Source: an uncultured archaeon (GTDB lineage Archaea; Aenigmatarchaeota; Aenigmatarchaeia; CG10238-14; SCSR01). Taken from it: 44,191 nucleotides of DNA. The notes under the pieces were generated by a model. That model made no database searches. It was not told the DNA's origin and saw nothing but the letters and a program-made list of their open reading frames with translations. Positions within the stretch are counted from its first letter, which is position 1. Every line of letters starts with the position of its first letter. The position numbers and the translations under genes were made by a program. The DNA lies in the NCBI GenBank assembly GCA_964514495.1, contig CAZERL010000001.1, positions 1-44,191 on the forward strand, in the 5' to 3' direction. Shown here one piece after another: positions 1-35,562 of this stretch.

Positions 1-70
1 GGTGTAGCTCAATTGGCAGAGCACTTGCCTTGTACGCAAGCGGTTGCTTGTTCAACTCAAGCCGCCGGCT
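1..70 (+). tRNA. tRNA-Thr (anticodon UGU); about 3 nt of the 5' acceptor stem are cut off by the window edge
   Basis: Cloverleaf read by eye. D arm GCTC/AATTGGCA/GAGC (7-22). Anticodon arm CTTGC/CTTGTAC/GCAAG (24-40) with TGT at 31-33. T arm GCTTG/TTCAACT/CAAGC (46-62). 3' acceptor CGCCGGC (63-69) pairs with the partial 5' GGTG. Discriminator T70; no encoded CCA. Confidence 0.85.
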
Positions 71-84
71 CTTTAGGTGGTTAA

Positions 85-792
85 ATGATAATAGCAGGAC
101 ATCAATCACATTATTTGCCAGGCATGAGGTTCTTTGCCAAAGTTATGTCGTGCGATAAGTTCATCATTGTCGATCATGTGCAGTTTGTGAAGAAGGAATG
201 GCAAAACAGAAATAAGATCAAGACCAAAGACGGACCTATGTGGCTGACTGTGCCGGTTTTGGTCAAAGGCAAATATAATCAAAGTATCAATGAGGTTGAA
301 ATTGACAATAAGCCAAATTGGCAAAAGACACACTGGCGTTCTATTGAAATCAATTATAACAAAGCTCCGTACTTTGATAGTTACAAGAATTTCTTTGAAT
401 CTATTTACAAGAAGAAATGGAACAAATTGGTGGACTTGAACTGGGAAATAATTAATTTCTTGTTAAAAGAACTTAAGATAAGCAAGGAAATAATTTTAAG
501 TTCATCTTTGAATCTTGCCAGCAAAAGTACAGATTTGCTAGTAGAATTATGTAAAAAACTAAATGCAGATACTTATTTGTCTGGAGAACAGGCAAAAACA
601 TACATTGATTTGTCGAAATTTAAAAACAAAAATTTAAATCATATTTTTATGAAATTCAATTACCCTATTTACCAGCAACAATTTGATGAGTTTATTCCAA
701 ATCTATCAATAATTGATGCATTGTTCAATTGCGGGAGTGAGGAAACCATAAGATTGTTAGAAGTGAATAGAGAATTTGAAAACCCATTATAA
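85..792 (+). CDS. WbqC-like family protein (function unknown, associated with polysaccharide loci)
   Basis: 235-aa ORF. HQSHYLPGMRFF..FIIVDHVQFVKKEWQNRNKIKT..GPMWLTVPV and NYNKAPYF match my recollection of the WbqC-like signature. AGGTGG Shine-Dalgarno at 75-80, 4 nt before the ATG. Confidence 0.8.
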   Translation: MIIAGHQSHYLPGMRFFAKVMSCDKFIIVDHVQFVKKEWQNRNKIKTKDGPMWLTVPVLVKGKYNQSINEVEIDNKPNWQKTHWRSIEINYNKAPYFDSYKNFFESIYKKKWNKLVDLNWEIINFLLKELKISKEIILSSSLNLASKSTDLLVELCKKLNADTYLSGEQAKTYIDLSKFKNKNLNHIFMKFNYPIYQQQFDEFIPNLSIIDALFNCGSEETIRLLEVNREFENPL

Positions 793-1734
793 CTTTAGCA
801 ATTCAGGATGTTCCTTCCACCATTCAACCGTCAGCCTTAACCCTTCCTTTAATGAAGTCTCAGGCTTCCACCCCAACTCTTTCATTACTTTAGAGCAATC
901 CCCATAAGACCTTGATATATCTTGCGTTCTCATAGATTCCCAAACAGGCTTTACATCAGAACCACACGCTTCTATTATTTCATTGCAAAAGTCGCCGATT
1001 CTTGTTTCAACACCGGAGCACAGATGATATACCTCACCCTTCTTACCCTTTTCCACAATTGTCATATACCCCTTGACTATATCCATCACATATGAATAGT
1101 CTCTAGTTGGATTAGGATTACCAAGTTTAGGTGCTTGCCCTTTCAAAACCTGCGATATTACCTTTGGTACAAAGAAATCACCACGCTGACCAGGGCCGTA
1201 TTTGTTGAATGCGCGTGAAATCACCACATCAAATCCCTGATCTATCAAAGGTTTCAAAATGACTTCTGCCGCAAATTTAGACGAAGAATAAATATCAACT
1301 GGATTTGGTGCAGCATCTTCTTTCAGAGGCAATTTATCCTCCGGTTGGTTGCCGTACACATGGCACGTAGATATATGCAGCATTCTTTCTGCATTACTTT
1401 TCATCGCAGCCCATGCAACATTAAAAGCACCTATTGTATTCACCTGTATCGTATTAGCTGGTACATCTCTAGCCCCAACAACAGGAACTACAGCCGCAGA
1501 ATGAAACACATAATCAACACCCTCCATAGCGTTAATCAAACTTGTCATGTCGGTTACATCACCATTCAAAATACTCACATCATTTTTGATTTCATTTAAA
1601 TTGAAAACCAACCCGCCTCTTTTAACAAAAGCTTTGACGTTCGCATTCTCTTCCAACAATGCTTTGCATAAGTTCGAGCCTGTAAACCCATTAGCGCCAG
1701 TAACTAATACAATCTTACCTTCCCAAAATCCCAT
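787..1734 (-). CDS. NAD-dependent sugar epimerase/reductase (extended SDR)
   Basis: 315 aa. Rossmann motif VTGANGFTGSNL. Catalytic region ISTCHVYG ... YSSSK (YxxxK). Confidence 0.85.
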   Translation of the reverse strand: MGFWEGKIVLVTGANGFTGSNLCKALLEENANVKAFVKRGGLVFNLNEIKNDVSILNGDVTDMTSLINAMEGVDYVFHSAAVVPVVGARDVPANTIQVNTIGAFNVAWAAMKSNAERMLHISTCHVYGNQPEDKLPLKEDAAPNPVDIYSSSKFAAEVILKPLIDQGFDVVISRAFNKYGPGQRGDFFVPKVISQVLKGQAPKLGNPNPTRDYSYVMDIVKGYMTIVEKGKKGEVYHLCSGVETRIGDFCNEIIEACGSDVKPVWESMRTQDISRSYGDCSKVMKELGWKPETSLKEGLRLTVEWWKEHPELLKL

Positions 1735-1742
1735 AACATCAC

Positions 1743-2726
1743 TTAAATTGTCTTAATATTATGGTTTATAAGTTCTACTAATGTGTCCTTGAAGTCTATT
1801 TCCGGCTTCCAATCTAACTCCCTTTTAGCTTTAGAATTATCCCCAATCAAAATCGGCATGTCCTTTTTTCTAAGCCTTTTTTTATCAATTTCTACTGGCA
1901 CATTATCCAAATTAAATTCTTTTATCAATTGTTGTATAAGATCCCGAATCTTGTATCCTTTGCCGCTGCATAAATTATATACATCACACTTCTTACACTT
2001 TTCCGCAGCCAAGATATAACCATTTACGATATCCCTAACATCACTGAAATCTCTAACTACATCAATGTTTCCAAAAAATAAAGTTTTAGCCCGCCCTTTT
2101 ACCACATTCGATATCTGCCTTACAATTTCCATCCCAACAACATCTTTATTGCACCTAGGTCCTTCATGGTGGAATGCTCTTGTTATTGCAATTGACATGC
2201 CATAAGCATTGGAATAGAATCTGCATAAACTATCTGCAGAAGCCTTTGATATACCATACATTTCAAAGGGCCTGATTTCCTGCGTTTCTTTGATTGGAAT
2301 CTCTTCAGGCTTCACATCACCATATACGTTAGATGAACTCGCAAAATGTATTTTCGAAATACCGCCCTCATATCTTCTAATCGCGTCCATTAAGTTCATA
2401 GTTCCTGTAAAGTTCAAAGAAAATGTTTTAAAAGGTTCGTCGTAGCTTATTTTAGCGAGGGCTTGTGCGGCCAAATGGAAGACAATATCAGGTTCACATT
2501 TCTTCACCGCAGACGATAAAGAATCTATTTTAAGTATATCCCCATTTAACAGAGTCATTTTATCTTTTAAGTGTTCCATATTTTCTAAAGACGAATTTTC
2601 CCTTTTCAGTCCAAACAGTTCAATTTTACTTCTTTCTAATAATTTTTCAGCCAGCCAAGAACCAGCAAATCCAGTAACCCCTGTTATGAGGATTCTCTTA
2701 TCATCCCAGAAATTAGATGACATCAA
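1743..2726 (-). CDS. Gmd/Rmd-clade extended SDR (NDP-4-keto-6-deoxyhexose reductase-like)
   Basis: 327 aa. ITGVTGFAGSWL, SSSNVYG, YGISK. FHHEGPR resembles the FNHESPRR block of the GDP-mannose dehydratase/reductase clade. Lies 8 nt upstream of the previous SDR on the same strand. Confidence 0.8.
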   Translation of the reverse strand: MMSSNFWDDKRILITGVTGFAGSWLAEKLLERSKIELFGLKRENSSLENMEHLKDKMTLLNGDILKIDSLSSAVKKCEPDIVFHLAAQALAKISYDEPFKTFSLNFTGTMNLMDAIRRYEGGISKIHFASSSNVYGDVKPEEIPIKETQEIRPFEMYGISKASADSLCRFYSNAYGMSIAITRAFHHEGPRCNKDVVGMEIVRQISNVVKGRAKTLFFGNIDVVRDFSDVRDIVNGYILAAEKCKKCDVYNLCSGKGYKIRDLIQQLIKEFNLDNVPVEIDKKRLRKKDMPILIGDNSKAKRELDWKPEIDFKDTLVELINHNIKTI

Positions 2727-2776: not shown

Positions 2777-4051
2777 ATGCTAAAGGACGAAGCCATAAAA
2801 AACATAAGTCAAATAGTTATGGAGTATTTCAAAACTCAAAAATTCGAATTCGTACCAGGCAAAACTAAAATTCCTTTGCAATGGCCCAGCTACGGATACG
2901 AGGAGGTTAATGAAGCCATAGAATCCCTTTTGTCAACCTGGGTGACAATGGGCAAAAAAGTAAACGCTTTTGAAAATCTTTTCTCCAGCTATTTAGGCGC
3001 AAAATATTCTGCGATGGTGAATTCCGGCTCTTCCGCGAATCTGGCAGTATTAACAGCCTTGACAAACCCTGTATTGAGAGATAGAATAAACAAAGGTGAT
3101 GAAATAATCACTCCTGCTGTGACATGGGCTACTACAGTATATCCTATAGTCAATGTCGGGACCAAGCCTGTTTTTGTCGACGTTGGTCTTGATTATAACA
3201 TAGATGTGGATAAAATCGAATCGGCAATTACCGATAAAACTGCGGCAATAATGCCAGTGCATCTGCTTGGAAATCCCTCGGATATAAAAAGAATTATGGA
3301 GATTGCAGATGGTCATGACCTATTTGTTATAGAAGACAATTGCGAATCTTACGGGGCTGAGGTAAACGGCAAGAAAACAGGAACCTTCGGAGACGTAGGA
3401 ACCTCCAGTTTTTTCATCTCGCATCAGATAACGACAATAGAGGGAGGCATGATAAATACCGATGACGAAACACTTTTCGAGTTGGTAAAACAAATACGAG
3501 TTTTCGGATGGATAAGGGATTTAAAAGACAGAGAAGCTATAGCAAAGAAGTACAGCCACATAGACCCTAGATTCCTATTCATAAATATGGGATTCAATTT
3601 AAGGCCTACTGAAATACAAGGCGCATTTGGAATGCACCAACTGAAAAAGCTTGACTATTTCATAAAATTAAGGAAGGACAATGCAGACCTTTGGAACAAA
3701 AGGTTAGAAGAATTTTCAGATTATTTGATATTGCCGAAAGAGCGTCCAGGCACAAGGCATGTTTGGTTTTGCTACCCTTTGACCGTTAAACCTGATGCGC
3801 CATTTACAAGAAAAGAGCTGACAGATTTTCTGGAATCCAGGAAAATAGAAACAAGGCCAGTGCAGACTGGGAATATGGTGGAGCAACCGGTATCAGAATT
3901 TTTGGGTTATCGTGCATCAGGAGAATTAACAAATTCTAAACTTATAATGTATAATTCGTTTTTCTTTGGAAATCATCAGAATATTGGAAAACCCGAAAGG
4001 GAATATGTTGCTGATTGTATAGAAGAGTTCATAAAATCGAAGGTTATATAA
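2777..4051 (+). CDS. RfbH/ColD-like PMP-dependent NDP-4-keto-6-deoxyhexose 3-dehydratase (DegT/DnrJ/EryC1 fold)
   Basis: 424 aa. VNSGSSANLAVLTAL, GDEIITPAVTWATTVYP and FGDVGTSSFFISHQITTIEGGMI. His occupies the position of the Schiff-base Lys found in DegT aminotransferases (SFHPVKNITTGEGG). RfbH (SFYPAHHITMGEGG) and ColD have the same substitution. Confidence 0.75.
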   Translation: MLKDEAIKNISQIVMEYFKTQKFEFVPGKTKIPLQWPSYGYEEVNEAIESLLSTWVTMGKKVNAFENLFSSYLGAKYSAMVNSGSSANLAVLTALTNPVLRDRINKGDEIITPAVTWATTVYPIVNVGTKPVFVDVGLDYNIDVDKIESAITDKTAAIMPVHLLGNPSDIKRIMEIADGHDLFVIEDNCESYGAEVNGKKTGTFGDVGTSSFFISHQITTIEGGMINTDDETLFELVKQIRVFGWIRDLKDREAIAKKYSHIDPRFLFINMGFNLRPTEIQGAFGMHQLKKLDYFIKLRKDNADLWNKRLEEFSDYLILPKERPGTRHVWFCYPLTVKPDAPFTRKELTDFLESRKIETRPVQTGNMVEQPVSEFLGYRASGELTNSKLIMYNSFFFGNHQNIGKPEREYVADCIEEFIKSKVI

Positions 4052-4968
4052 TGAATTTTGACGGCAAGACCGCTATTGTAACCGGTGGTGCTGGATTTTT
4101 GGGTTCACACATCGTCGATAAATTACTAGACCTGGGCGTTAATGTCACTGTTGTTGATTTAGCAGCAAATGCAAAACGATTGTCGCATGTTGTTAACAAA
4201 ATCGAATTCGTAAATCTTGATATATCCAATGAAAAAAACTTAAAGAGCTTGAAGCCATCAGATTTTATTTTCCATCTTGCCGCTTACGCAGTCCCAAACC
4301 TATGCGAAAAAAATCCCGACATGGCCTTTAAGGCTAATGTGCTTGGCACATATAACATGCTTAAGTTTGCCTTGGAAACTTCAGCTAAGAAAATAATTTT
4401 CCCCTCATCGGCACTGTTATATGGAAAGCACCCAAAATATCTTCCAATAGACGAAAAACACCCTATAGAAATTGGTTCTGTATACAATTCAACAAAGAAA
4501 TTCGGCGAAGACATGTGCAACTATTTTCTCGAGAATCATAATTTACCTGTTGTCTATTTCAGATTGTTCAATTCATTCGGTCCTAGGCAGGATATCGATT
4601 ATTTCATACCAACAGTGATTGTGCAGGCATTGAAACAAAAAGAAATTGGAATTTGGAATGCAGAACCAACAAGAGATTTTACATTCGTGGCCGATACAGT
4701 CGATGCATTTATTAAAGCAGCAGAATCGAATTTTGTCGGGGGACCTATAAACATTGGTTCTGGCCGTGAGATAAAAGTTGGTGAAATAGCAAAGGTGATT
4801 GCTGAAAAACTTGATGCTAAGTTGGTAATGCTAAATAAAACTGTTTCAGGTTCAATGCGGCTTTCTTGCAATAATTTTTTAGGGAAAAAGACTATAGGAT
4901 GGGAACCGCACATAAAATTTGAAGACGGGCTTAACGAGACTATAGACTCGTTCATTAAGAATAAATAA
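4051..4968 (+). CDS. GalE-like NAD-dependent epimerase (extended SDR)
   Basis: MNFDGKTAIVTGGAGFLGSHIV, SSALLYG, YNSTK. I prefer the ATG at 4051, which shares its A with the upstream TAA (TAATG), over the ORF-track start at 4015. Confidence 0.85.
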   Translation: MNFDGKTAIVTGGAGFLGSHIVDKLLDLGVNVTVVDLAANAKRLSHVVNKIEFVNLDISNEKNLKSLKPSDFIFHLAAYAVPNLCEKNPDMAFKANVLGTYNMLKFALETSAKKIIFPSSALLYGKHPKYLPIDEKHPIEIGSVYNSTKKFGEDMCNYFLENHNLPVVYFRLFNSFGPRQDIDYFIPTVIVQALKQKEIGIWNAEPTRDFTFVADTVDAFIKAAESNFVGGPINIGSGREIKVGEIAKVIAEKLDAKLVMLNKTVSGSMRLSCNNFLGKKTIGWEPHIKFEDGLNETIDSFIKNK

Positions 4969-5013: not shown

Positions 5014-5733
5014 ATGTCAAATAATGGAAATATGATTTCAGTCGTTTTACCAACATACAATGAAAGAGAAAATATCGTCAATCTTATTACTCACATAGAG
5101 TCTGTTCTCAAAAGAAAAGGGCTGAAAGCTGAGATAGTGGTTGTTGACGATAATTCCCCAGATGGAACAGCAAGGATTGTAAGAAAGCTAAATAAAAAAT
5201 ATAGAAACATAAGAGTCTTTGTCCGCCCCAAAAAACTTGGTATAGGATCCGCACACCTTTTTGGCTATCAGAAAGCAAAAGGGTATATAGTAATTGCGAT
5301 GGATACAGACCTTTCACATGACCCAGAACAGATTGTCAACATGATTGAGAAAATTAATGAAGGCTATGACATCGTTGCCGGCTCAAGGCATATGAAAGGC
5401 TCATACTATGAGAGGAAAACGCCCGAAACAAGGAGAAAATATATTGCAAGCAAATACGGTAATATGCTGACAGCCTTCATATCTGGAGTCCCTATACACG
5501 ACTTTACTAACGGGTTCAGGGCAATAAGGAAAGATGTTGTGAAAAATGTCAAGACAGAATCTACAGGAAATTCGTTTCTCATGGAGTTCATAGTAAAGGC
5601 ACAAAACAAGGGCTACAGGGTTACTGAAATACCAGTGACTTTCAAGGACAGGAAGTTCGGCCAATCAAAGCTTCAGTTGGAAAAGGAATCTCTAAAATAT
5701 ATACTGGACCTGCTGAAGTATTCAAGAACCTAG
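5014..5733 (+). CDS. Dolichyl/polyprenyl-phosphate hexose synthase (GT2, Dpm1-like)
   Basis: 239 aa. ISVVLPTYNERENI..EIVVVDDNSPDGTA..MDTDLSHDP..AGSRH..DFTNGFRA is the classic Dpm1/polyprenol-monophosphomannose synthase layout. Confidence 0.85.
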   Translation: MSNNGNMISVVLPTYNERENIVNLITHIESVLKRKGLKAEIVVVDDNSPDGTARIVRKLNKKYRNIRVFVRPKKLGIGSAHLFGYQKAKGYIVIAMDTDLSHDPEQIVNMIEKINEGYDIVAGSRHMKGSYYERKTPETRRKYIASKYGNMLTAFISGVPIHDFTNGFRAIRKDVVKNVKTESTGNSFLMEFIVKAQNKGYRVTEIPVTFKDRKFGQSKLQLEKESLKYILDLLKYSRT

Positions 5734-21482: not shown

Positions 21483-22547
21483 TTATGAACTGATACCATA
21501 CTCTTGCTGGAACCATTGAATCGTTCTTTTTAGGCCAGATTTCAAATCAACTCTCGCCTGATAGCCTATGAGTTTATTGATTTTTGTCAAATCTGGGCAT
21601 CGTCTTTTGGGATCGGCACTTGCATAGGCTTCATTAGGACTTGAAATTTTCTTTATGCTCAGTTTGTTATCAAAAATTTCCGACACGAGTTTAGCAAAAT
21701 CAATAATGCTTATCTCCTCCTTTTGGTTCCCGATATTGAAAACCTCCCCGTTGAAATCTGAGAATAGGACTTGATAGATTCCTGTAATAGCATCTGTGAT
21801 ATAACAGAAAGCCCTTGTATGATTCCCTTCACCATACACCGGCAAAGGATTTCCTTTAAGTGCGCTATGTATGAAATTTGGGAGTACGCGAAAATCATCA
21901 GGTTTTATTCCTGGTCCATATACATTAAACGGCCTCACTACTTTTGCAGGCAGTCTAAATAGCTGGTAGTATGTCATGCATAAAGTCTCACCGAGTCTTT
22001 TTGATTCATCATAGCATGCTCTTGGACCAATTGTGTTTACATTGCCAAAATAAGTTTCCGGCGTAGGTACAAACTTTGGATCAGGGTCACCATAAACCTC
22101 ACTCGAACTTAAAAAAACGAAGCTCTCGACATTTTTCTCTTTTGCCAGTTCCAGCATATTTTTTGTACCTATTGTACCTACCTCTATAGTTTCCATAGGA
22201 AATTTAGTATAGTAGAATGGAGAAGCTATGCCGGCTGCATGTATGATGAAATTTATATCCTCTTCTAATTTCAATGGATTTCTAACGTCATGATTTATTA
22301 CTTTTACACTGTTGTTATTGCTTAGAATCATATTTTTCGAGCCTGTTATAAAGTTGTCTACTGAGATTACTTTACATGGCTTTTCTAGGGCAATTTTATT
22401 GATAAAATCTATGGCTGATGTGAGGTAACGGCCTATAAACCCACCACCTCCAGTGATTAACAGTGTCTTGTTTTGTAATTTCCTAGAACAGCCTGCTAGA
22501 TTTTCTACAATAGTTTTTAAATCCTCCTCTATTATTTTAGAGACCAT
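21483..22547 (-). CDS. UDP-glucuronate decarboxylase (UXS)-like extended SDR
   Basis: 354 aa. LLITGGGGFIGRYL, LSSSEVYGDPDP, YDESKRLGETLC (compare UXS: TSEVYGDP / YDEGKR.AE). Confidence 0.8.
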   Translation of the reverse strand: MVSKIIEEDLKTIVENLAGCSRKLQNKTLLITGGGGFIGRYLTSAIDFINKIALEKPCKVISVDNFITGSKNMILSNNNSVKVINHDVRNPLKLEEDINFIIHAAGIASPFYYTKFPMETIEVGTIGTKNMLELAKEKNVESFVFLSSSEVYGDPDPKFVPTPETYFGNVNTIGPRACYDESKRLGETLCMTYYQLFRLPAKVVRPFNVYGPGIKPDDFRVLPNFIHSALKGNPLPVYGEGNHTRAFCYITDAITGIYQVLFSDFNGEVFNIGNQKEEISIIDFAKLVSEIFDNKLSIKKISSPNEAYASADPKRRCPDLTKINKLIGYQARVDLKSGLKRTIQWFQQEYGISS

Positions 22548-22603
22548 TTGAATACAACTACTAAAATATTTTATACGGACCTATTAATACAGACAATTAG
22601 ACT

Positions 22604-22987
22604 CTAAACCAATTTAAACTTTGTAGTGTGTTCCTCATACTTGTCTGCATCTCTAGTTCCTGTGGTGAAAGTAAGAAACACTGAATCCTCTAAAAATCCC
22701 ATCGCATGTACTACCATAGGAGGAGTTATTACCAAGTCACCAGGCTCAATTATGTTTGTTTCAACTTTACCATCTTCATTTCTAATATCTTTAGTCACAT
22801 ACTCATACTTACCACTCAAAAGATAGTCATTTTGTATCTGATTGGGATGATAATGGTTGCCTCTAATAGAGCCGGCCTTCGACGTTATTAATGCCACATG
22901 TTCGATTGGCGCATCCAGCAAGTTTGATATCTCACCTCTTTCATCTACGAAAGCAGGCCTAATTTTTCTTATGGTTATAAGCGTCAT
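22604..22987 (-). CDS. Small cupin protein (sugar-nucleotide ketoisomerase/epimerase-like; FdtA/WxcM or CapF C-terminal-domain-like)
   Basis: 127 aa. DERGEISNL..GSIRGNHYHPN..LLSGKYEY..VITPPMVVHA has the cupin two-His motif spacing. Subfamily assignment is tentative. Confidence 0.6.
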   Translation of the reverse strand: MTLITIRKIRPAFVDERGEISNLLDAPIEHVALITSKAGSIRGNHYHPNQIQNDYLLSGKYEYVTKDIRNEDGKVETNIIEPGDLVITPPMVVHAMGFLEDSVFLTFTTGTRDADKYEEHTTKFKLV

Positions 22988-23051
22988 AATTTCACATATT
23001 TAAACTAACACTATTATTTTTAAATACTAGTTTTTAACTAGGTGCATAGAT

Positions 23052-23792
23052 ATTCAATTAAAAGGTAAAATAGCCGTTATAACCGGTGGTAGCAAAGGAC
23101 TTGGAAAAGAGCTAGCTAAATTTTTTTCCGCCGAAGGTAGCACAGTTGTCATCTGTTCAAGAAGCGCGAATGACCTGAAGAGTGTTTGCAATGAAATTGT
23201 TGGTGCTGGCGGGAAGTGCGAATATTTTGTAGTTGATGTAACCAATAAAAAACAAGTCGACAAGCTTATTGATAAAGTTCTCAGTTCACATGGCAGAGTT
23301 GATGTTTTAGTCAATAATGCTGGATATGCCACCAAGTGGAAGGGCATAGAGAAAAATACTGAAGGAGAATTCGAAACATGCTTTAGAACTAACGTATATT
23401 CAATTTTCTATTTCCTTAAAAAAATAGTTCCGATAATGCGAAGGCAGAATTCAGGCTCGATAATCAACATATCATCCATGGCTGGGAAAAGAGGGATTCC
23501 AAACTTGGCAGCATATTGCGCTAGTAAATTTGCAGTGGTGGGGCTCACCCAATCTGTTGCTAAAGAGCTTAAGGATACTGATGTCCTCTGTATAAGTGTA
23601 TGCCCAGGAGGAATGTCCACAGAAATGCGGTCAAAGATATTTGGATTGGAAGATGCCAAGAAGCAACAAAGCCCACAGTATGTCGCAAATGTAATTAAAG
23701 ATGTTTTGTTAGGTAAGATAAAAGTTCCTAATGGCGGCGATATAATCATAAGGCATGGCAAAATAATGGCTATTAATCCCGCGCCAGAATAA
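23052..23792 (+). CDS. Classical SDR oxidoreductase (FabG-like), with no canonical start codon; proposed ATT start
   Basis: The frame is open from 23031 to 23792. It reads ..IQLKGKIAVITGGSKGLG (TGxxxGxG), NNAG, and SSMAG..YCASK (S-Y-K triad). There is no in-frame ATG, GTG or TTG before 23436, which lies downstream of the Rossmann and NNAG motifs. GGTG at 23041-23044 sits 7 nt before the ATT at 23052. Confidence 0.6.
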   Translation: MQLKGKIAVITGGSKGLGKELAKFFSAEGSTVVICSRSANDLKSVCNEIVGAGGKCEYFVVDVTNKKQVDKLIDKVLSSHGRVDVLVNNAGYATKWKGIEKNTEGEFETCFRTNVYSIFYFLKKIVPIMRRQNSGSIINISSMAGKRGIPNLAAYCASKFAVVGLTQSVAKELKDTDVLCISVCPGGMSTEMRSKIFGLEDAKKQQSPQYVANVIKDVLLGKIKVPNGGDIIIRHGKIMAINPAPE

Positions 23793-23835
23793 ATCTTATT
23801 TCAATATTTTTATTGTATTGCAACCAGGGATAAAG

Positions 23836-25056
23836 ATGAAATGCAAAATATGCGATAATCAGAATCTCCAAAAATTTCTTTCGTTAGGTGAAACGCCCTT
23901 GGCTAACAATTTCTTGAGAGAAGGTGATTTGCCTAAATCAGAGAAAACATTCCCTTTAGATGTTTACTTTTGTCCAAATTGCAAATTAGTACAATTGGGT
24001 TATGTAGTGCCACCAGAAATGATGTTTACAAATTACTTTTATGTGTCTTCAACTTCGAACACTTTTCAGCTACATTTTTCCAAGATGGCGGAAGAACTTA
24101 CGAATATGCTGAAGTTAGATGGCAATTCACTCGCAGTTGACATAGGAAGCAATGATGGTGTGCTTCTTAAAGGATTTCAGAAGTTTGGGGTTCGCACTGT
24201 TGGTGTAGAGCCTGCCACAAACATCGCAGAAATTGCAAAAAAGGATGGCATTGATACTATTAAAGATTTTTTTAGCGATAATGCTACAGATCAAATACTA
24301 TCTTCCGAAGGATATGCAGATGTCATCACAGCCAATAATGTTTTTGCACACACCGGAGCAATAAAGCGAATAATATACAATGTTAAAAGACTTTTAAAGG
24401 ACGATGGAATCTTTGTAATAGAAGTGGCTTACCTTCTTGATATGCTTCAAAAGATGACATTTGACATAGTTTATCATGAGCACCTTTTCTACTATTCATT
24501 AACACCACTAGACTACCTTTTCAATCAGCAGGGCATGCAAATATTTGATGTACAAAGAATTCCTACCCATGGAGGCTCTTTGAGAGTTTTTATTAAGAAA
24601 TCAGAGTCATCCAAACCCATCAAAAAGTCGGTATCCGAAATCCTTGGAAAAGAAAAGGAGATGGGAATTCATGAACTGGAAACTTATGAAAATTTTACCA
24701 ATAGCGTGTATAAAGCAAAAGAACAACTGGCAAAACTAATAATGGATCTTAAAAATCAAGGAAAAACAATCGCCGGTTATGGTGCTCCCGCGAAATCAAC
24801 GACTTTATTGAATTTTTGCGGCTTAGGTGGAGATTTCATCGAGTATATAGTTGATGAGAATGACCTAAAGCAAGGATTGTATACACCAGGCACACACATC
24901 CCAATAGTACCTCCGAGCATGCTAGACAAAAAGAGACCGGACTATATTTTGATTCTTGCGTGGAATTTCGCCGAAGAAATCTTGAATAAGACAAAGAAAT
25001 ATAAAGCTGATGGCGTAAAATTTATAATCCCTCTTCCAGAACTAATGACAGTTTGA
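23836..25056 (+). CDS. NDP-hexose C-methyltransferase (TylC3-like: Zn ribbon + SAM MTase + C-methyltransferase C-terminal domain)
   Basis: MKCKICDNQ..CPNCKLVQL (four-Cys ribbon), VDIGSNDGVLL (SAM motif I), ANNVFAH, and the long C-terminal domain typical of this family. I prefer the ATG at 23836 over the TTG at 23818. Confidence 0.8.
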   Translation: MKCKICDNQNLQKFLSLGETPLANNFLREGDLPKSEKTFPLDVYFCPNCKLVQLGYVVPPEMMFTNYFYVSSTSNTFQLHFSKMAEELTNMLKLDGNSLAVDIGSNDGVLLKGFQKFGVRTVGVEPATNIAEIAKKDGIDTIKDFFSDNATDQILSSEGYADVITANNVFAHTGAIKRIIYNVKRLLKDDGIFVIEVAYLLDMLQKMTFDIVYHEHLFYYSLTPLDYLFNQQGMQIFDVQRIPTHGGSLRVFIKKSESSKPIKKSVSEILGKEKEMGIHELETYENFTNSVYKAKEQLAKLIMDLKNQGKTIAGYGAPAKSTTLLNFCGLGGDFIEYIVDENDLKQGLYTPGTHIPIVPPSMLDKKRPDYILILAWNFAEEILNKTKKYKADGVKFIIPLPELMTV

Positions 25057-30667: not shown

Positions 30668-32209
30668 TTGAAAGTATTGTTGTTGAACCCACCTAACCAA
30701 TTCAAAATAAGCAAGACAAGCAGATGGCCCGAATGGACGAAAAGCGGGACTTTATATTATCCATTTTGGCTAGCTTATGCCACATCAGTTCTAATGGAAT
30801 CCAAACACAAACCACTGCTTTTGGATGCTATTGCAAAAAATCTAGACTTCCAGATGACTTTAGAAAAAATCCAGGATTTCAATCCTGATATGGTTGTTAT
30901 AGAATCCTCAACACCCAGTGTGCATAGAGATGCACAGTTTGCCGATGATGTGAAGAAGATATCTGATTCAAAAATAGTTTTCGCTGGTAGACATGTAACC
31001 GCTACAACCGAACAAACCCTGAAGATGTTCAAATCAATTGACATAGTTGCAAGAGGCGAGTATGATTACACTATTTTGGATATTGCAAATGAGCTCAACA
31101 ACGGGCAAAACCTCAAAGAAGTCGTTGGCATCTCATTTAGAAAAAACGGAAATATAATAAATACCCCGATAAGACAATTGACTCAGAATTTAGACGAAAT
31201 GCCGTTCGTATCAAAAGCATACAGGGAATTTTTGGATGTGAGAGATTACAGGTATGCATTAGCACAGCATCCCATGTTGCAGCTTTGGAGCAGTAGAGGA
31301 TGCCCAAATAGATGTACATATTGCGACTATCCTCAGGTGATGACGATGCATACATTCAGAATGAGAAGTGCAAAAAACGTCGTTGATGAAATGGAATACA
31401 TTCATAAAAACTTGCCAAATGTCAAAGAAATTTTCCTTGAAGATGACACATTTACAATTGATAGAAATCGTACGTTTGAAATTTGTAAAGAAATACAAGA
31501 GAGAAAATTAAAACTCATTTGGTCTTGTAATGTTAGAGCTAATCTTGATTATGATATTTTGAAGGCAATGAAGGAAGCTGGTTGTCGTATTTTGATTGTG
31601 GGATACGAAAGTGGCAATCAACAAGTTTTAAACAACATAAAGAAAGGCATTGCGTTAAAACAGGCAGAGGAATTCACCAAACACGCACAAAAACTCGGCT
31701 TAAGGATATTCGGTTGTTTCATGATAGGTTTACCAGGCGATACAAAAGGAAGCATAAATGATACATTGCAGTTTGCAAAAAAGATGCATCCTGATATGGT
31801 ATTTTTCCAACAGGGTGTACCGTTCCCAGGAACAGAATTCTACGAATGGGCTAAGTATATGGGGTATCTGAAGACAGAGGACTACAGCAAGTGGTTTGAC
31901 GAAACAGGTAGACTGGACTGTTTAGTGAATCAGCCAGGCTTGAGTGGAGAAGAGGTTAAAAAAATGAGAGAAAACCTTATGCTGCGATATTACTTGGATC
32001 CAAGGCACATATTCTATACCTTGAGAAGGAATCTCCATCCTTTCGAATTTGTAAGGGTTGTACATTATGCTAAAGATTACCTTGCCTTCCTTATGTTAAA
32101 GAAGCTTAAATCAATGCAAAAGAAAAGCGTGAAAGACGATACGCCTCTAATTCACCACAAGCATGAAGAGAAAGGACCATTTGAAGAAAGACTACTCCAA
32201 TCGACTTAA
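30668..32209 (+). CDS. B12-binding-domain radical SAM enzyme (class B)
   Basis: 513 aa from a TTG start. N-terminal MKVLLLNPP..DMVVIESSTPS..IVFAGRHVT (cobalamin-binding Rossmann-like domain), then SSRGCPNRCTYCDYP (CxxxCxxC). Confidence 0.85.
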   Translation: MKVLLLNPPNQFKISKTSRWPEWTKSGTLYYPFWLAYATSVLMESKHKPLLLDAIAKNLDFQMTLEKIQDFNPDMVVIESSTPSVHRDAQFADDVKKISDSKIVFAGRHVTATTEQTLKMFKSIDIVARGEYDYTILDIANELNNGQNLKEVVGISFRKNGNIINTPIRQLTQNLDEMPFVSKAYREFLDVRDYRYALAQHPMLQLWSSRGCPNRCTYCDYPQVMTMHTFRMRSAKNVVDEMEYIHKNLPNVKEIFLEDDTFTIDRNRTFEICKEIQERKLKLIWSCNVRANLDYDILKAMKEAGCRILIVGYESGNQQVLNNIKKGIALKQAEEFTKHAQKLGLRIFGCFMIGLPGDTKGSINDTLQFAKKMHPDMVFFQQGVPFPGTEFYEWAKYMGYLKTEDYSKWFDETGRLDCLVNQPGLSGEEVKKMRENLMLRYYLDPRHIFYTLRRNLHPFEFVRVVHYAKDYLAFLMLKKLKSMQKKSVKDDTPLIHHKHEEKGPFEERLLQST

Positions 32210-33208: not shown

Positions 33209-34249
33209 ATGAAAATTTTAGTCGCTCATGAAAAATTTCCGCCTGAAGTAGCTGGCGGTGGCGAAACAATAGTCTACAATCTAGTAAAAGGCTTGATTAC
33301 GCGCGGACATCATGTGACTGTAATCACAACAGGAAATCCAAAGATAAAGCAATTCGATGGGATAAAAACCATAAGAATCCCAATCAACCGCTACCTGATG
33401 AACCTTTCGTATCCAATAATTCTCAAGCATGCAAAGGACTACGATTTAATTCAAACAACATCTGGAAACATGTGTTTTCCATCATGGAAGGCTGCAAAAA
33501 CATTGAACAAGCCAATAGTTTGCTTAATTCTTCATCTGTTATCCCACCATTGGAAAACAATTCGAGGTGATTTTGTCGGCACAATCTTCCTCCAGATGGA
33601 AAAATTATTTTTAGGAAGAAATTATGATTCGATTGTTGTGATGAATGACAATGCAAAAAATCTTTTAAGGAAAATAAATAAAGCAAGTAAAGTTTATGAA
33701 ATACCTTCCGGTTTCGACTTCAAGTCTCCAAAACCAGTTAAAAAAACCAAATCAATTTTATTCGTCGGAAATCTTTCCATGAATAAGACCATGATTAAAT
33801 TAAAAGGTCTGACAGAATTTGTTGTGACCGCAAAATACTTTCCCGATTACGAGTTCTATGTAGTAGGCAAGGGAGATTATCTCAGCGAGATTAAGAGGCA
33901 TTCACCTTCAAATGTAATTTTTACAGGACCTTTATTCGGAGATAAATTGAGAAACCTATTTTCCAAATCAGAAATTTTCTGCAATTTATCATTGAGCGAA
34001 GGCTTCGGCCTCACAACTGCAGAAGCAATGGCATCAGGCTGTGCGGTAATCTCAACCATCGATATAGGACAATTGGGAATGTTTGTCAATCCTAAAGATG
34101 TCCACGGTTTGAGAAGCGCACTACATTACCTACTCACACACCCAACAGAAATGAAGCAAATGGTCAGCCGCAACAAAAAAATAGCCCAGAAATACACATG
34201 GGATAGATTTGTCGAAGGATTTGTAAAAATTTACAAGCATTTAGTTTAA
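33209..34249 (+). CDS. GT4 (group 1) glycosyltransferase
   Basis: 346 aa. MKILVAHEKFPPEVAGGGE and LSLSEGFGLTTAEAMASGCAVI (E-x7-E). The ATG directly follows the upstream stop. Confidence 0.85.
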   Translation: MKILVAHEKFPPEVAGGGETIVYNLVKGLITRGHHVTVITTGNPKIKQFDGIKTIRIPINRYLMNLSYPIILKHAKDYDLIQTTSGNMCFPSWKAAKTLNKPIVCLILHLLSHHWKTIRGDFVGTIFLQMEKLFLGRNYDSIVVMNDNAKNLLRKINKASKVYEIPSGFDFKSPKPVKKTKSILFVGNLSMNKTMIKLKGLTEFVVTAKYFPDYEFYVVGKGDYLSEIKRHSPSNVIFTGPLFGDKLRNLFSKSEIFCNLSLSEGFGLTTAEAMASGCAVISTIDIGQLGMFVNPKDVHGLRSALHYLLTHPTEMKQMVSRNKKIAQKYTWDRFVEGFVKIYKHLV

Positions 34250-35562
34250 ACTTTCGTTCCAGTACCGATTCCAATAACTGGCACATGCAACTTTGGCAAA
34301 ATATTTTTACCGTCCACAACAAACTTCAATCCAGGAACCTTCCTATAGTCAAAATTCTTGAATTGCGAATGGTCACAGCCTATAATTAAAACGTCGCATC
34401 CATCTTTCTCAGGATCGCATGGCATAAATCCCATTTTTGCCAACTCTTCATCCGCGAATAGCGGCTCGTACACATAAGTCTTAATACCCTCACGCTTCAG
34501 AAGATTGTGCAAAACTATTGCAGGACTATCCCTCAAATCCCTTACATCACCCTTGTACGCCAATCCGAATATAACAACTTTCGAATTATGAAGTTTGACA
34601 TTGAATTCTTCACCCGCCTTTTTCAAAAGATTGTATGTATAATACGGCATACTTTCATTCGACCACATCGCATTCCATAAAGTAGTAAACTGAACACCAG
34701 CTTCTTCACCGGCAGATATAAGATAATAGGGGTCTTTAGGGATGCAACTACCACCCACACCTATGCCCGGATAATGTTTTGAAAATCCAATTGGCTTTGT
34801 TGCAGCAGCATTTACAACTTCTACAACATTTATCCCAGCAGCATCACAGAACTTCGCAAACTCGTTAATGAACCCGATATTTAATGCTCTATAAGAATTT
34901 TCCAGCATCTTTGTAGCTTCTGCAGCTTCTAAGGATGAAACAGGATGAACCTTCTCAATAAAATTAGAATAGAAAGCCACACCAACCCCCAAACTATCTT
35001 TAGTTATCCCACCAACAACTTTAGGAATTTTATTTATAGTGTAAGTAGTATTTCCAGGGTCTATCCTTTCAGGCGATGCAACAAGATAAAAATCATCGCC
35101 AGCTTTCATTCCAGACTCTTCTTCTATTATAGGCACAATCTCCTTTCTTGTCATTCCAGGCGCAACAGTACTTTCATTTACCACCAAACTCCCTCTCTTC
35201 AAGTCCTTCCCAATCACCCTAGCTATATCCTTGACTGCAGTTAGATTTGGCCTTCTGTCTGGAAACATCGGGGTCTGCACACAAATCATCGTAACATCAG
35301 AATTTTTTTCATATTCGTTAGAAAATGTCATCTTCCCTTCCGATGCCAACCTCTTTAGAGCCGTAGAGTCGATTTCTTTCAAGTCTTCCAAAGGATTTTC
35401 CCCTTTAGATAAAGCGCTAGTCTTCCATTCGTTTCTATCCGTCCCATGCACCTTAAATCCAGCTTTCCCTATCTCTACAGCCAATGGTATGCCAACATAG
35501 CCCATCCCAAAGACATTTACAACAGCTGTTTTGTTAGTTATCTTCTCCTTAAGGCTCTCCAT
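34246..35562 (-). CDS. Nucleotide-sugar 6-dehydrogenase (UDP-glucose/GDP-mannose dehydrogenase family; Ugd or WecC type)
   Basis: 438 aa. VFGMGYVGIPLA (GxGxxG) and GVGGSCIPKDP (catalytic Cys motif GGxCxxKD). Confidence 0.85.
   Translation of the reverse strand: MESLKEKITNKTAVVNVFGMGYVGIPLAVEIGKAGFKVHGTDRNEWKTSALSKGENPLEDLKEIDSTALKRLASEGKMTFSNEYEKNSDVTMICVQTPMFPDRRPNLTAVKDIARVIGKDLKRGSLVVNESTVAPGMTRKEIVPIIEEESGMKAGDDFYLVASPERIDPGNTTYTINKIPKVVGGITKDSLGVGVAFYSNFIEKVHPVSSLEAAEATKMLENSYRALNIGFINEFAKFCDAAGINVVEVVNAAATKPIGFSKHYPGIGVGGSCIPKDPYYLISAGEEAGVQFTTLWNAMWSNESMPYYTYNLLKKAGEEFNVKLHNSKVVIFGLAYKGDVRDLRDSPAIVLHNLLKREGIKTYVYEPLFADEELAKMGFMPCDPEKDGCDVLIIGCDHSQFKNFDYRKVPGLKFVVDGKNILPKLHVPVIGIGTGTKV

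Follow-up and report, generated by a model that had tools for sequence, protein, structure and literature searches.

A histidine-type DegT-fold protein in an archaeal glycan island: a predicted ColD-like sugar C-3 dehydratase with atypical dehydrogenase partners

The stretch of 44,191 nucleotides from contig CAZERL010000001.1 of an uncultured aenigmatarchaeal genome (the whole stretch is called the window below) encodes, at positions 2777..4051 of the forward strand, a DegT-fold protein of 424 amino acids with an ATG start, in which a histidine stands in for the lysine that forms the Schiff base in the aminotransferases of this family. This protein, the target of the analysis, is probably a pyridoxamine 5'-phosphate (PMP)-dependent C-3 dehydratase of a nucleoside diphosphate (NDP)-4-keto sugar, which would operate like ColD, without an iron-sulfur cluster and without a reductase. 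Two enzymes served as references, namely ColD, the GDP-4-keto-6-deoxy-D-mannose 3-dehydratase (E. coli O55 WbdK; PDB 2GMS/3B8X), and E1 (RfbH/DdhC/AscC), the CDP-4-keto-6-deoxy-D-glucose 3-dehydrase (3BCX). As judged from the sequence comparisons, ColD-type 3-dehydratase chemistry is very likely, and the chances that the substrate is a GDP-linked 6-deoxyhexose are about even. The target is an enzyme of a known kind, with a reaction type known from bacterial O-antigen pathways, and it belongs to a large uncharacterised subclade.

The histidine substitution is genuine and not a chance event. The target matches the Pfam family DegT_DnrJ_EryC1 (PF01041) with 303.6 bits, and its best phmmer matches in the PDB are ColD (2GMS, 6e-85) and E1 (3BCX, 3.8e-80), followed by Lys-type aminotransferases at 1e-53 or weaker. 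Alignments with ColD and E1 define the active-site block SSFFISHQITTIEGG (residues 210-224; 3404..3448, forward strand), in which His216 (nt 3422-3424) takes the place of the Schiff-base Lys of the aminotransferase block S-x-x-x-x-K-x-I-x-x-G-E-G-G. The phmmer alignments put His188 of wild-type ColD into the column of His216, the ColD mutant chains H188N, H188K and S187N/H188K deviate exactly at this column, and His220 of E1 (SFYPAHHITMGEGG) is found there as well, so that the replacement of Lys by His that had originally been predicted from the DNA is confirmed. In addition, Ser215-His216 of the target matches the Ser187-His188 dyad of ColD. In an alignment of 49 close relatives the His is present in all 49 and the Ser in 46, and columns 206-227 are free of Lys in every one of the 49; a conserved Lys one or two positions away, which might have served as the Schiff base instead, does not exist. 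At a wider scale, relatives were clustered at 50% identity, and 156 of the 157 representatives have His at the catalytic column. The sole other DegT protein of the same genome is of the Lys type and reads SFFPTKPMTTGEGG. The target shares the fold, the cofactor-binding blocks and, by prediction, the NDP-4-keto-sugar type of substrate with DegT/DnrJ/EryC1 aminotransferases such as the GDP-perosamine synthase PerA and ArnB, from which it differs by the missing Schiff-base Lys. The likeness to ColD, and also to the C. jejuni HS:5 heptose C3-dehydratase, goes further and includes the Ser-His dyad that replaces Asn/x-Lys and the EDNCES block; the other pyridoxal 5'-phosphate (PLP)/PMP-site blocks SGSSANL and TIEGG are likewise conserved between the target and ColD.

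The catalytic His is common to ColD and E1, and the two differ in their cysteines. The four-Cys motif of Yersinia E1 (C193, C251, C253 and C261) reportedly supplies the ligands of its [2Fe-2S] cluster, an assignment said to go back to Agnihotri et al. in 2004. In the alignment of the target with E1 a 10-residue gap lies opposite the E1 segment RDCYCAPGCDNTC (C251/C253/C257/C261), and the site of the Cys-rich loop of E1 is occupied by the short, Cys-free loop GWIRDL (3506..3523, forward strand), where ColD reads GWTRNL. The target contains three cysteines, C189, C332 and C414. Conservation is confined to C189, whose counterparts are the EDNCES Cys in ColD and C193 in E1; no other member of the four-Cys motif is kept in the target. 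The original prediction had pointed to the low number of cysteines; the count was correct, but the loop deletion relative to E1 is the stronger fact. A census of this loop in 156 His-type representatives yielded 121 Cys-less versus 35 Cys-rich enzymes. E1 and SpnQ hold their [2Fe-2S] cluster via the four-Cys motif, which is absent from ColD, and PMP is regenerated in ColD from glutamate, with no reductase (review PMC8987622). A reductase of the E3 type, the lack of which near the target had also been noted before, was not found in Pfam scans among the open reading frames of the window, and no Fer2 domain is encoded in the 1.04-Mb, about 95%-complete genome. The two NAD_binding_1 matches elsewhere in the genome (contigs C79 and C4) cannot serve as E3, because the target has no Fe-S site. 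Because the Fe-S loop of E1 is absent and no E3 partner is present, the reductase-independent, ColD-like mechanism that had been proposed earlier is the best reading.

The position of the target among its relatives was analysed with a FastTree phylogeny of 159 rows, in which two Lys-type DegT proteins formed the outgroup. The His-type enzymes are monophyletic with respect to this outgroup (support 100), and the target thus groups with the PMP-dependent 3-dehydratases and not with the aminotransferases. The Cys-less enzymes form a superclade of 106 rows (support 99) that holds both the target and ColD, whereas the E1-type group consists of the carriers of the Cys-rich loop and does not include the target. 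Within the superclade, ColD lies in a subclade of 22 rows (support 100) and the target in a separate subclade of 13 rows (support 95), and a second, careful tree repeats this separation. The heptose C3-dehydratases of C. jejuni are 62-67% identical to ColD (PMC10440746) and therefore are members of the ColD subclade.

The AlphaFold2 model of the target (predicted local distance difference test, pLDDT, 94.4; predicted template modelling, pTM, score 0.92) was compared with solved structures using Foldseek. E1 is the top match, with a template modelling (TM) score of 0.93 and an alignment that spans residues 3-419, while ColD is matched with TM scores of 0.85/0.93. E1 comes first because the target has its N-terminal helix, which accounts for about 40 additional N-terminal residues compared with ColD. 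Unlike E1, the target has Ser and not Ala before the His. The ColD likeness that had been predicted earlier therefore holds for the mechanistic features, but not for orthology, in view of the separate subclade, the low identity and the E1-like helix. The target is an ortholog neither of ColD nor of E1; its mechanistic features are ColD-like and its N-terminus is E1-like.

The gene is part of a conserved cassette. The neighbourhood survey comprised contigs encoding relatives, related genomes and a metagenome scan with alignment, and it revealed that the cassette of the window recurs in four related genomes. Two genes for short-chain dehydrogenases/reductases (SDRs), SDR315 and SDR327, are located on one strand, and the genes for the His-type DegT protein, a third SDR (SDR305) and a Dpm1/ArnC-like glycosyltransferase of family 2 (GT2) on the other. 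Among the 19 loci of the target's subclade with usable flanks, orthologs of SDR305, SDR315 and SDR327 are present within 3 kb in nine, six and five cases, respectively, and a canonical GDP-mannose 4,6-dehydratase (GMD) in two, to which L068, with short flanks, can be added. As a control of the method, 49 E1-type loci were surveyed, and 25 of them have an RfbF-like nucleotidyltransferase gene within 3 kb, at a distance of about 1 kb; therefore the survey recovers known pathway logic.

SDR305 (4051..4968, forward strand) is an extended SDR with the motifs PSSALLYG and YNSTK, and a TAATG overlap couples its translation to that of the target. No other neighbour is as constant in the subclade, as the nine of 19 loci show, and in L011, L064, L065 and L069 it is the sole SDR partner. 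No acid/base pair follows its catalytic Ser, and its top PDB matches are UXS and epimerases. SDR305 would be the 4-ketoreductase of the 3-deoxy-4-keto product; a role as a UXS/ArnA-type decarboxylase is unlikely, because the Glu that is needed is missing.

SDR327 (1743..2726, reverse strand, divergent from the target) belongs to the GMD/RMD family and has the motif ASSSNVYG, with Asn (in one ortholog Tyr) where GMD has its catalytic Glu. Its similarity to Rmd 2PK3 is in the 38-40% range. The five genomes that carry the cassette, including that of the window, have no other protein of the GMD family, and SDR327 and a canonical GMD never occur together in the surveyed loci. That SDR327 is a hidden GMD was considered and is unlikely given the residue at the position of the catalytic Glu; SDR327 may rather be an enzyme resembling a GDP-4-keto-sugar reductase.

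SDR315 (787..1734, reverse strand) is an extended SDR whose motif S-T-C-H-V-Y-G is strictly conserved. The acid-base pairs of RmlB, GMD and CDP-glucose 4,6-dehydratase are D-E, S-E and D-K, and the Cys and His of SDR315 occupy the positions of the Asp/Glu pair of dTDP-glucose 4,6-dehydratase (the two residues next after the catalytic Thr). The six cassette orthologs all keep the S-T-C-H motif, as do 73 of about 79 clusters of the family (S-T-C-H-[VI]-Y-G), and annotation pipelines name members of the family 'GDP-mannose 4,6-dehydratase' or 'dTDP-glucose 4,6-dehydratase' with no equivalog support. Members lie beside a His-type DegT gene in the window, in L062, L061, L063, L010, L067 and L150, and on most contigs examined; in one Elusimicrobia locus the partners are instead subunits of a thiamine pyrophosphate (TPP) enzyme that resembles pyruvate dehydrogenase (PDH) E1. 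PDH-E1-like TPP enzymes of branched-sugar pathways likewise need an NDP-4-keto sugar. Because of this co-occurrence with enzymes that need 4-keto sugars, SDR315 fits as the step that forms the 4-keto group. It is a candidate for an atypical 4,6-dehydratase, a role as epimerase being equally possible, and the S-T-C-H family may represent a new catalytic variant.

The fifth gene (5014..5733, forward strand) encodes a GT2 of the Dpm1/ArnC/AglJ type, which resembles polyprenyl-phosphate sugar synthases. Its top NCBIfam models are the ArnC type, a Dol-P-hexose transferase and AglJ, none of which it matches above the cutoff, and orthologs adjoin the cassette in L062, L061 and L010. It would load the finished sugar onto dolichyl phosphate.

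The fold, the His substitution, the lack of the Fe-S loop, the place in the tree and the conserved gene order are established by the analysis, whereas the catalytic activity, the amino donor, the substrate and what becomes of the product are predictions. A catalytic cycle can be proposed by transfer of the established mechanism of ColD. L-glutamate would turn PLP into PMP, and PMP would condense with the sugar nucleotide at its C-4 keto group to give a ketimine. The C-4' proton would then be taken by His216, which follows Ser215 in the same way as in the dyad of ColD, and the 3-OH would be expelled. Hydrolysis of the resulting enamine would yield an NDP-3-deoxy-4-keto sugar and ammonia and would regenerate PLP. 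The 4-keto group would subsequently be reduced by the coupled SDR305, and the Dpm1/ArnC-like GT2 would hand the sugar to dolichyl phosphate for use by the AglB/GT-C glycan island. The likeliest substrate would be of the GDP-4-keto-6-deoxy-D-mannose type, which would be converted to a GDP-3,6-dideoxyhexose, and SDR315 or the Rmd-like SDR327 would be the candidates for the supply of the 4-keto sugar.

The gene contexts of relatives are informative with respect to the sugar. In two members of the target's subclade (L068 and L071) a canonical GMD (6e-143 versus GMDs in the PDB) is encoded directly upstream of the His-type enzyme, and a third locus (L074) has the order GMD, Fcl/ColC-like SDR (SSTCVYS), His-type DegT, so that these relatives of the target, as ColD itself, adjoin GMD and Fcl/ColC-like genes. 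The sister clade L084/L087 shows the classical set of ColD, GMD and Fcl genes. In the careful tree the members linked to GMD take basal positions and are also mixed among those linked to the cassette, and the GMD/RMD family of SDR327 is GDP-specific. On balance, 3-deoxygenation is well supported and a GDP link favoured, and the sugar may or may not be 6-deoxy.

It should be noted that several observations weigh against a ColD-like enzyme acting on a GDP-6-deoxyhexose. In the structural alignments the identity to the solved enzymes is only 38% (ColD) and 35% (E1), the highest-scoring NCBIfam model, the RfbH equivalog NF011936, is matched below its cutoff (379.9 versus 423 bits), and no biochemically characterised member of the target's subclade was found. 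The canonical T-[SD]-E triad is missing from each of the three flanking SDRs, and a canonical 4,6-dehydratase of the GMD, RmlB or RfbG type is absent from the locus and from the nearly complete genome, in which SDR327 is the closest match to a canonical GMD (34% identity); the four sister genomes with the cassette also have no canonical GMD. In this respect the target differs from ColD, because its locus and genome lack both a canonical GMD and a Cys/His Fcl-type ColC, the partners being three atypical SDRs. No type can be assigned to the nucleotidyltransferases of the genome, which match Man-1-P guanylyltransferases best, but weakly. Equivalog-level NCBIfam matches were obtained neither for the three SDRs nor for the other SDRs of the genome nor for its four nucleotidyltransferases, so that the choice between GDP, CDP, UDP and dTDP cannot be read from them. 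Finally, the contexts in the subclade are heterogeneous. A T-S-E SDR is encoded upstream in L072, and in L009 (5702-9281) a UDPG/GDP-Man dehydrogenase gene is followed by those for an S-S-E SDR and the His-type DegT. Therefore, substrates may differ between members of the subclade. The 3,6-dideoxyhexose that had originally been predicted is thus consistent with the GDP-6-deoxyhexose route seen in L068, L071 and L074 and with the Rmd-like neighbour, but the canonical 4,6-dehydratase that such a route implies is missing.

The cassette of atypical SDRs is the newest element of the locus. A bolder proposal, which is rather doubtful in its entirety, is that SDR315, SDR327, the His-type DegT protein, SDR305 and the Dpm1-like GT2 might constitute a self-sufficient pathway that makes a 3,6-dideoxyhexose without a canonical GMD. 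In this scheme the S-T-C-H SDR is a hitherto unrecognised catalytic variant of NDP-hexose 4,6-dehydratase, with Cys/His replacing Asp/Glu (or Ser/Glu). The sugar would be completed by the Fe-S-free 3-dehydratase and SDR305 and delivered via dolichyl phosphate to the surface glycans of DPANN archaea, and it would be the first archaeal 3,6-dideoxyhexose.

The missing canonical 4,6-dehydratase, in both cassette and genome, would be accounted for if the target performed the same ColD-type C-3 dehydration on a substrate other than a GDP-6-deoxyhexose, with a 3-deoxy and not a 3,6-dideoxyhexose as the product. This alternative is unlikely, though it has several points in its favour. Possible substrates are an NDP-4-keto-hexose with its 6-OH intact, a UDP-4-keto-pentose made from UDP-glucuronate, and analogues of the 2-acetamido or heptose type. 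The pentose variant would be an Arn-like route composed of Ugd, an SDR, a DegT protein, an ArnC-like GT2 and an ArnT-like GT-C, and the locus has the Arn-like logic of SDR, DegT, ArnC-like GT2 and GT-C. Genes for a UDPG_MGDP dehydrogenase (34246-35562), a UXS-like SDR (21483-22547) and two PMT_2/ArnT-like GT-C proteins are indeed present in the window in addition to the GT2 of the cassette, UDP-glucuronate decarboxylases are the closest proteins of solved structure to SDR305, and the gene order of dehydrogenase, S-S-E SDR and His-type DegT occurs not only in L009 but also in the A-H-N clade (L086, L113, L114). However, the Glu needed by UXS and ArnA is missing in SDR305, and the dehydrogenase gene of the window is 30 kb away from the target. 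Furthermore, SDR327 as a GMD-family member of the cassette points to GDP-sugars, as does the basal and interleaved position of the GMD-linked relatives in the target's subclade.

Far less probable is that the target is a sugar aminotransferase in spite of its His and forms a 4-amino sugar. The fold and the cofactor site are those of aminotransferases, and SpnQ, when no reductase is present, transaminates in vitro with PLP and glutamate, but wild-type ColD and E1 are inactive in this reaction under comparable conditions (review PMC8987622). The target has the Ser-His dyad of ColD and not the Asn-Lys that makes ColD an aminotransferase, the His is invariant throughout a very large clade, and the genome has a separate Lys-type DegT protein. 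The possibility that the target is E1/SpnQ-like and receives external electrons from ferredoxin or flavodoxin plus reductases can be set aside as highly improbable, since, in spite of RfbH as top NCBIfam model and E1 as best fold match with a common N-terminal helix, three of the four cluster cysteines of E1 (C251, C253, C261) sit in the loop that is deleted in the target, the RfbH score stays under its cutoff, the genome encodes neither a Fer2 domain nor E3, the RfbF- and RfbG-type neighbours are missing here although an RfbF-like gene is common at E1-type loci, and the target lies outside the E1 clade.

The ColD-like dehydratase remains the preferred reading, and it would have implications for archaeal glycobiology. 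If it is true, DPANN (Aenigmarchaeota-like) archaea carry a 3-deoxy or 3,6-dideoxy sugar on their surface glycans, and the range of archaeal glycans would widen to a class of sugars that has until now been known from the O-antigens and capsules of bacteria. The statement that 3,6-dideoxyhexoses are not an established component of archaeal glycans can be upheld insofar as no report of them was found in the literature searched; it has to be qualified, because a genome survey is worded as if predictions of colitose pathways already existed for some non-TACK archaea (PMC7725333). The target also stands for a subclade of Fe-S-free 3-dehydratases that is very large and uncharacterised. Pipelines label its homologs in the subclade 'aminotransferase' or 'CDP-6-deoxy-D-xylo-4-hexulose-3-dehydrase', both of which are probably wrong in detail, and one characterised member would correct many annotations. 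In addition, the S-T-C-H SDR family may show a new way to a 4-keto sugar.

The window as a whole is an archaeal glycan island. It contains AglB/STT3, Alg13/14-like genes, an AglH-type GT4, a flippase, the two PMT_2-type (ArnT-like) GT-C proteins and many other glycosyltransferases, as well as a TylC3-like C-methyltransferase, a B12-radical S-adenosylmethionine (SAM) enzyme and a carbamoyltransferase. The closest homologs of the target are encoded in metagenome-assembled genomes of Aenigmarchaeota (87% and 71% identity). The spread of the His-type enzyme is patchy, with matches at E <= 1e-60 in 26 of 201 related genomes, about ten of them at >=59% identity. The His-type family as a whole is very large in archaeal and bacterial metagenomes, and metagenomic homologs at about 60% identity number in the thousands, in Archaea, Chloroflexota and other groups. 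Many of the His-type representatives, mostly of the E1 type, are fusions of 540-890 amino acids with an extra N- or C-terminal domain (P0157, P0171, P0172, P0175, P0178 and others).

At the 5' end of the window a clipped tRNA gene (1-70, forward strand; Rfam, 54.4 bits) directly precedes the first gene of the glycan island, which is WbqC-like (85-792). The latter was considered as a part of the cassette and rejected, because it is adjacent in the closest relatives only; elsewhere it accompanies a Lys-type DegT gene and a PIG-L gene. A second deoxysugar module (21483-25056) consists of the UXS-like SDR mentioned above (motifs SSSEVYG and GPRACYDESKR), a small cupin (22604-22987) and the TylC3-type sugar C-methyltransferase (Methyltransf_13/14; 23818-25056). 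An ortholog of the methyltransferase is also encoded near a His-type DegT gene in L066 and L070, which hints at a branched-chain sugar. The B12-binding radical SAM protein (30668-32209, forward strand) has the hopanoid model HpnJ as its top match (446 bits, cutoff 577.6). Its homologs recur in the glycan loci L009, L011, L071 and L113, and it looks like a glycan-modifying radical SAM enzyme.

Some related loci deserve mention in their own right. The A-H-N clade is a separate clade of Cys-less His-type enzymes named for its motif (SFFVAHNMTTGEGG), and its operon of UDPG/GDP-Man dehydrogenase, S-S-E SDR and His-type DegT is conserved (L086:1477-5130, L113:5598-9182, L114:2267-5783), which points to 3-deoxygenation of a 4-keto sugar that is made from a uronate or otherwise without GMD. 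A Dehalococcoidales contig (L012:3788-10216) has two tandem copies of the His-type DegT gene, each followed by an SDR305-like gene, with an Fcl-type SDR (SSTCVYS) and another SDR between them, and thus a duplicated 3-dehydratase module. Lastly, contig C2 of the genome encodes a divergent nucleotidyltransferase of 276 amino acids (C2:6896-7570; L004:1483-2313, reverse strand) with no NCBIfam match above about 60 bits and with weak top PDB matches of the Man-1-P guanylyltransferase types. Its ortholog (392 bits) is the nucleotidyltransferase next to the cassette in L010 (L010:10245-11078), and both genes are divergent from a UDPG/GDP-Man dehydrogenase gene.

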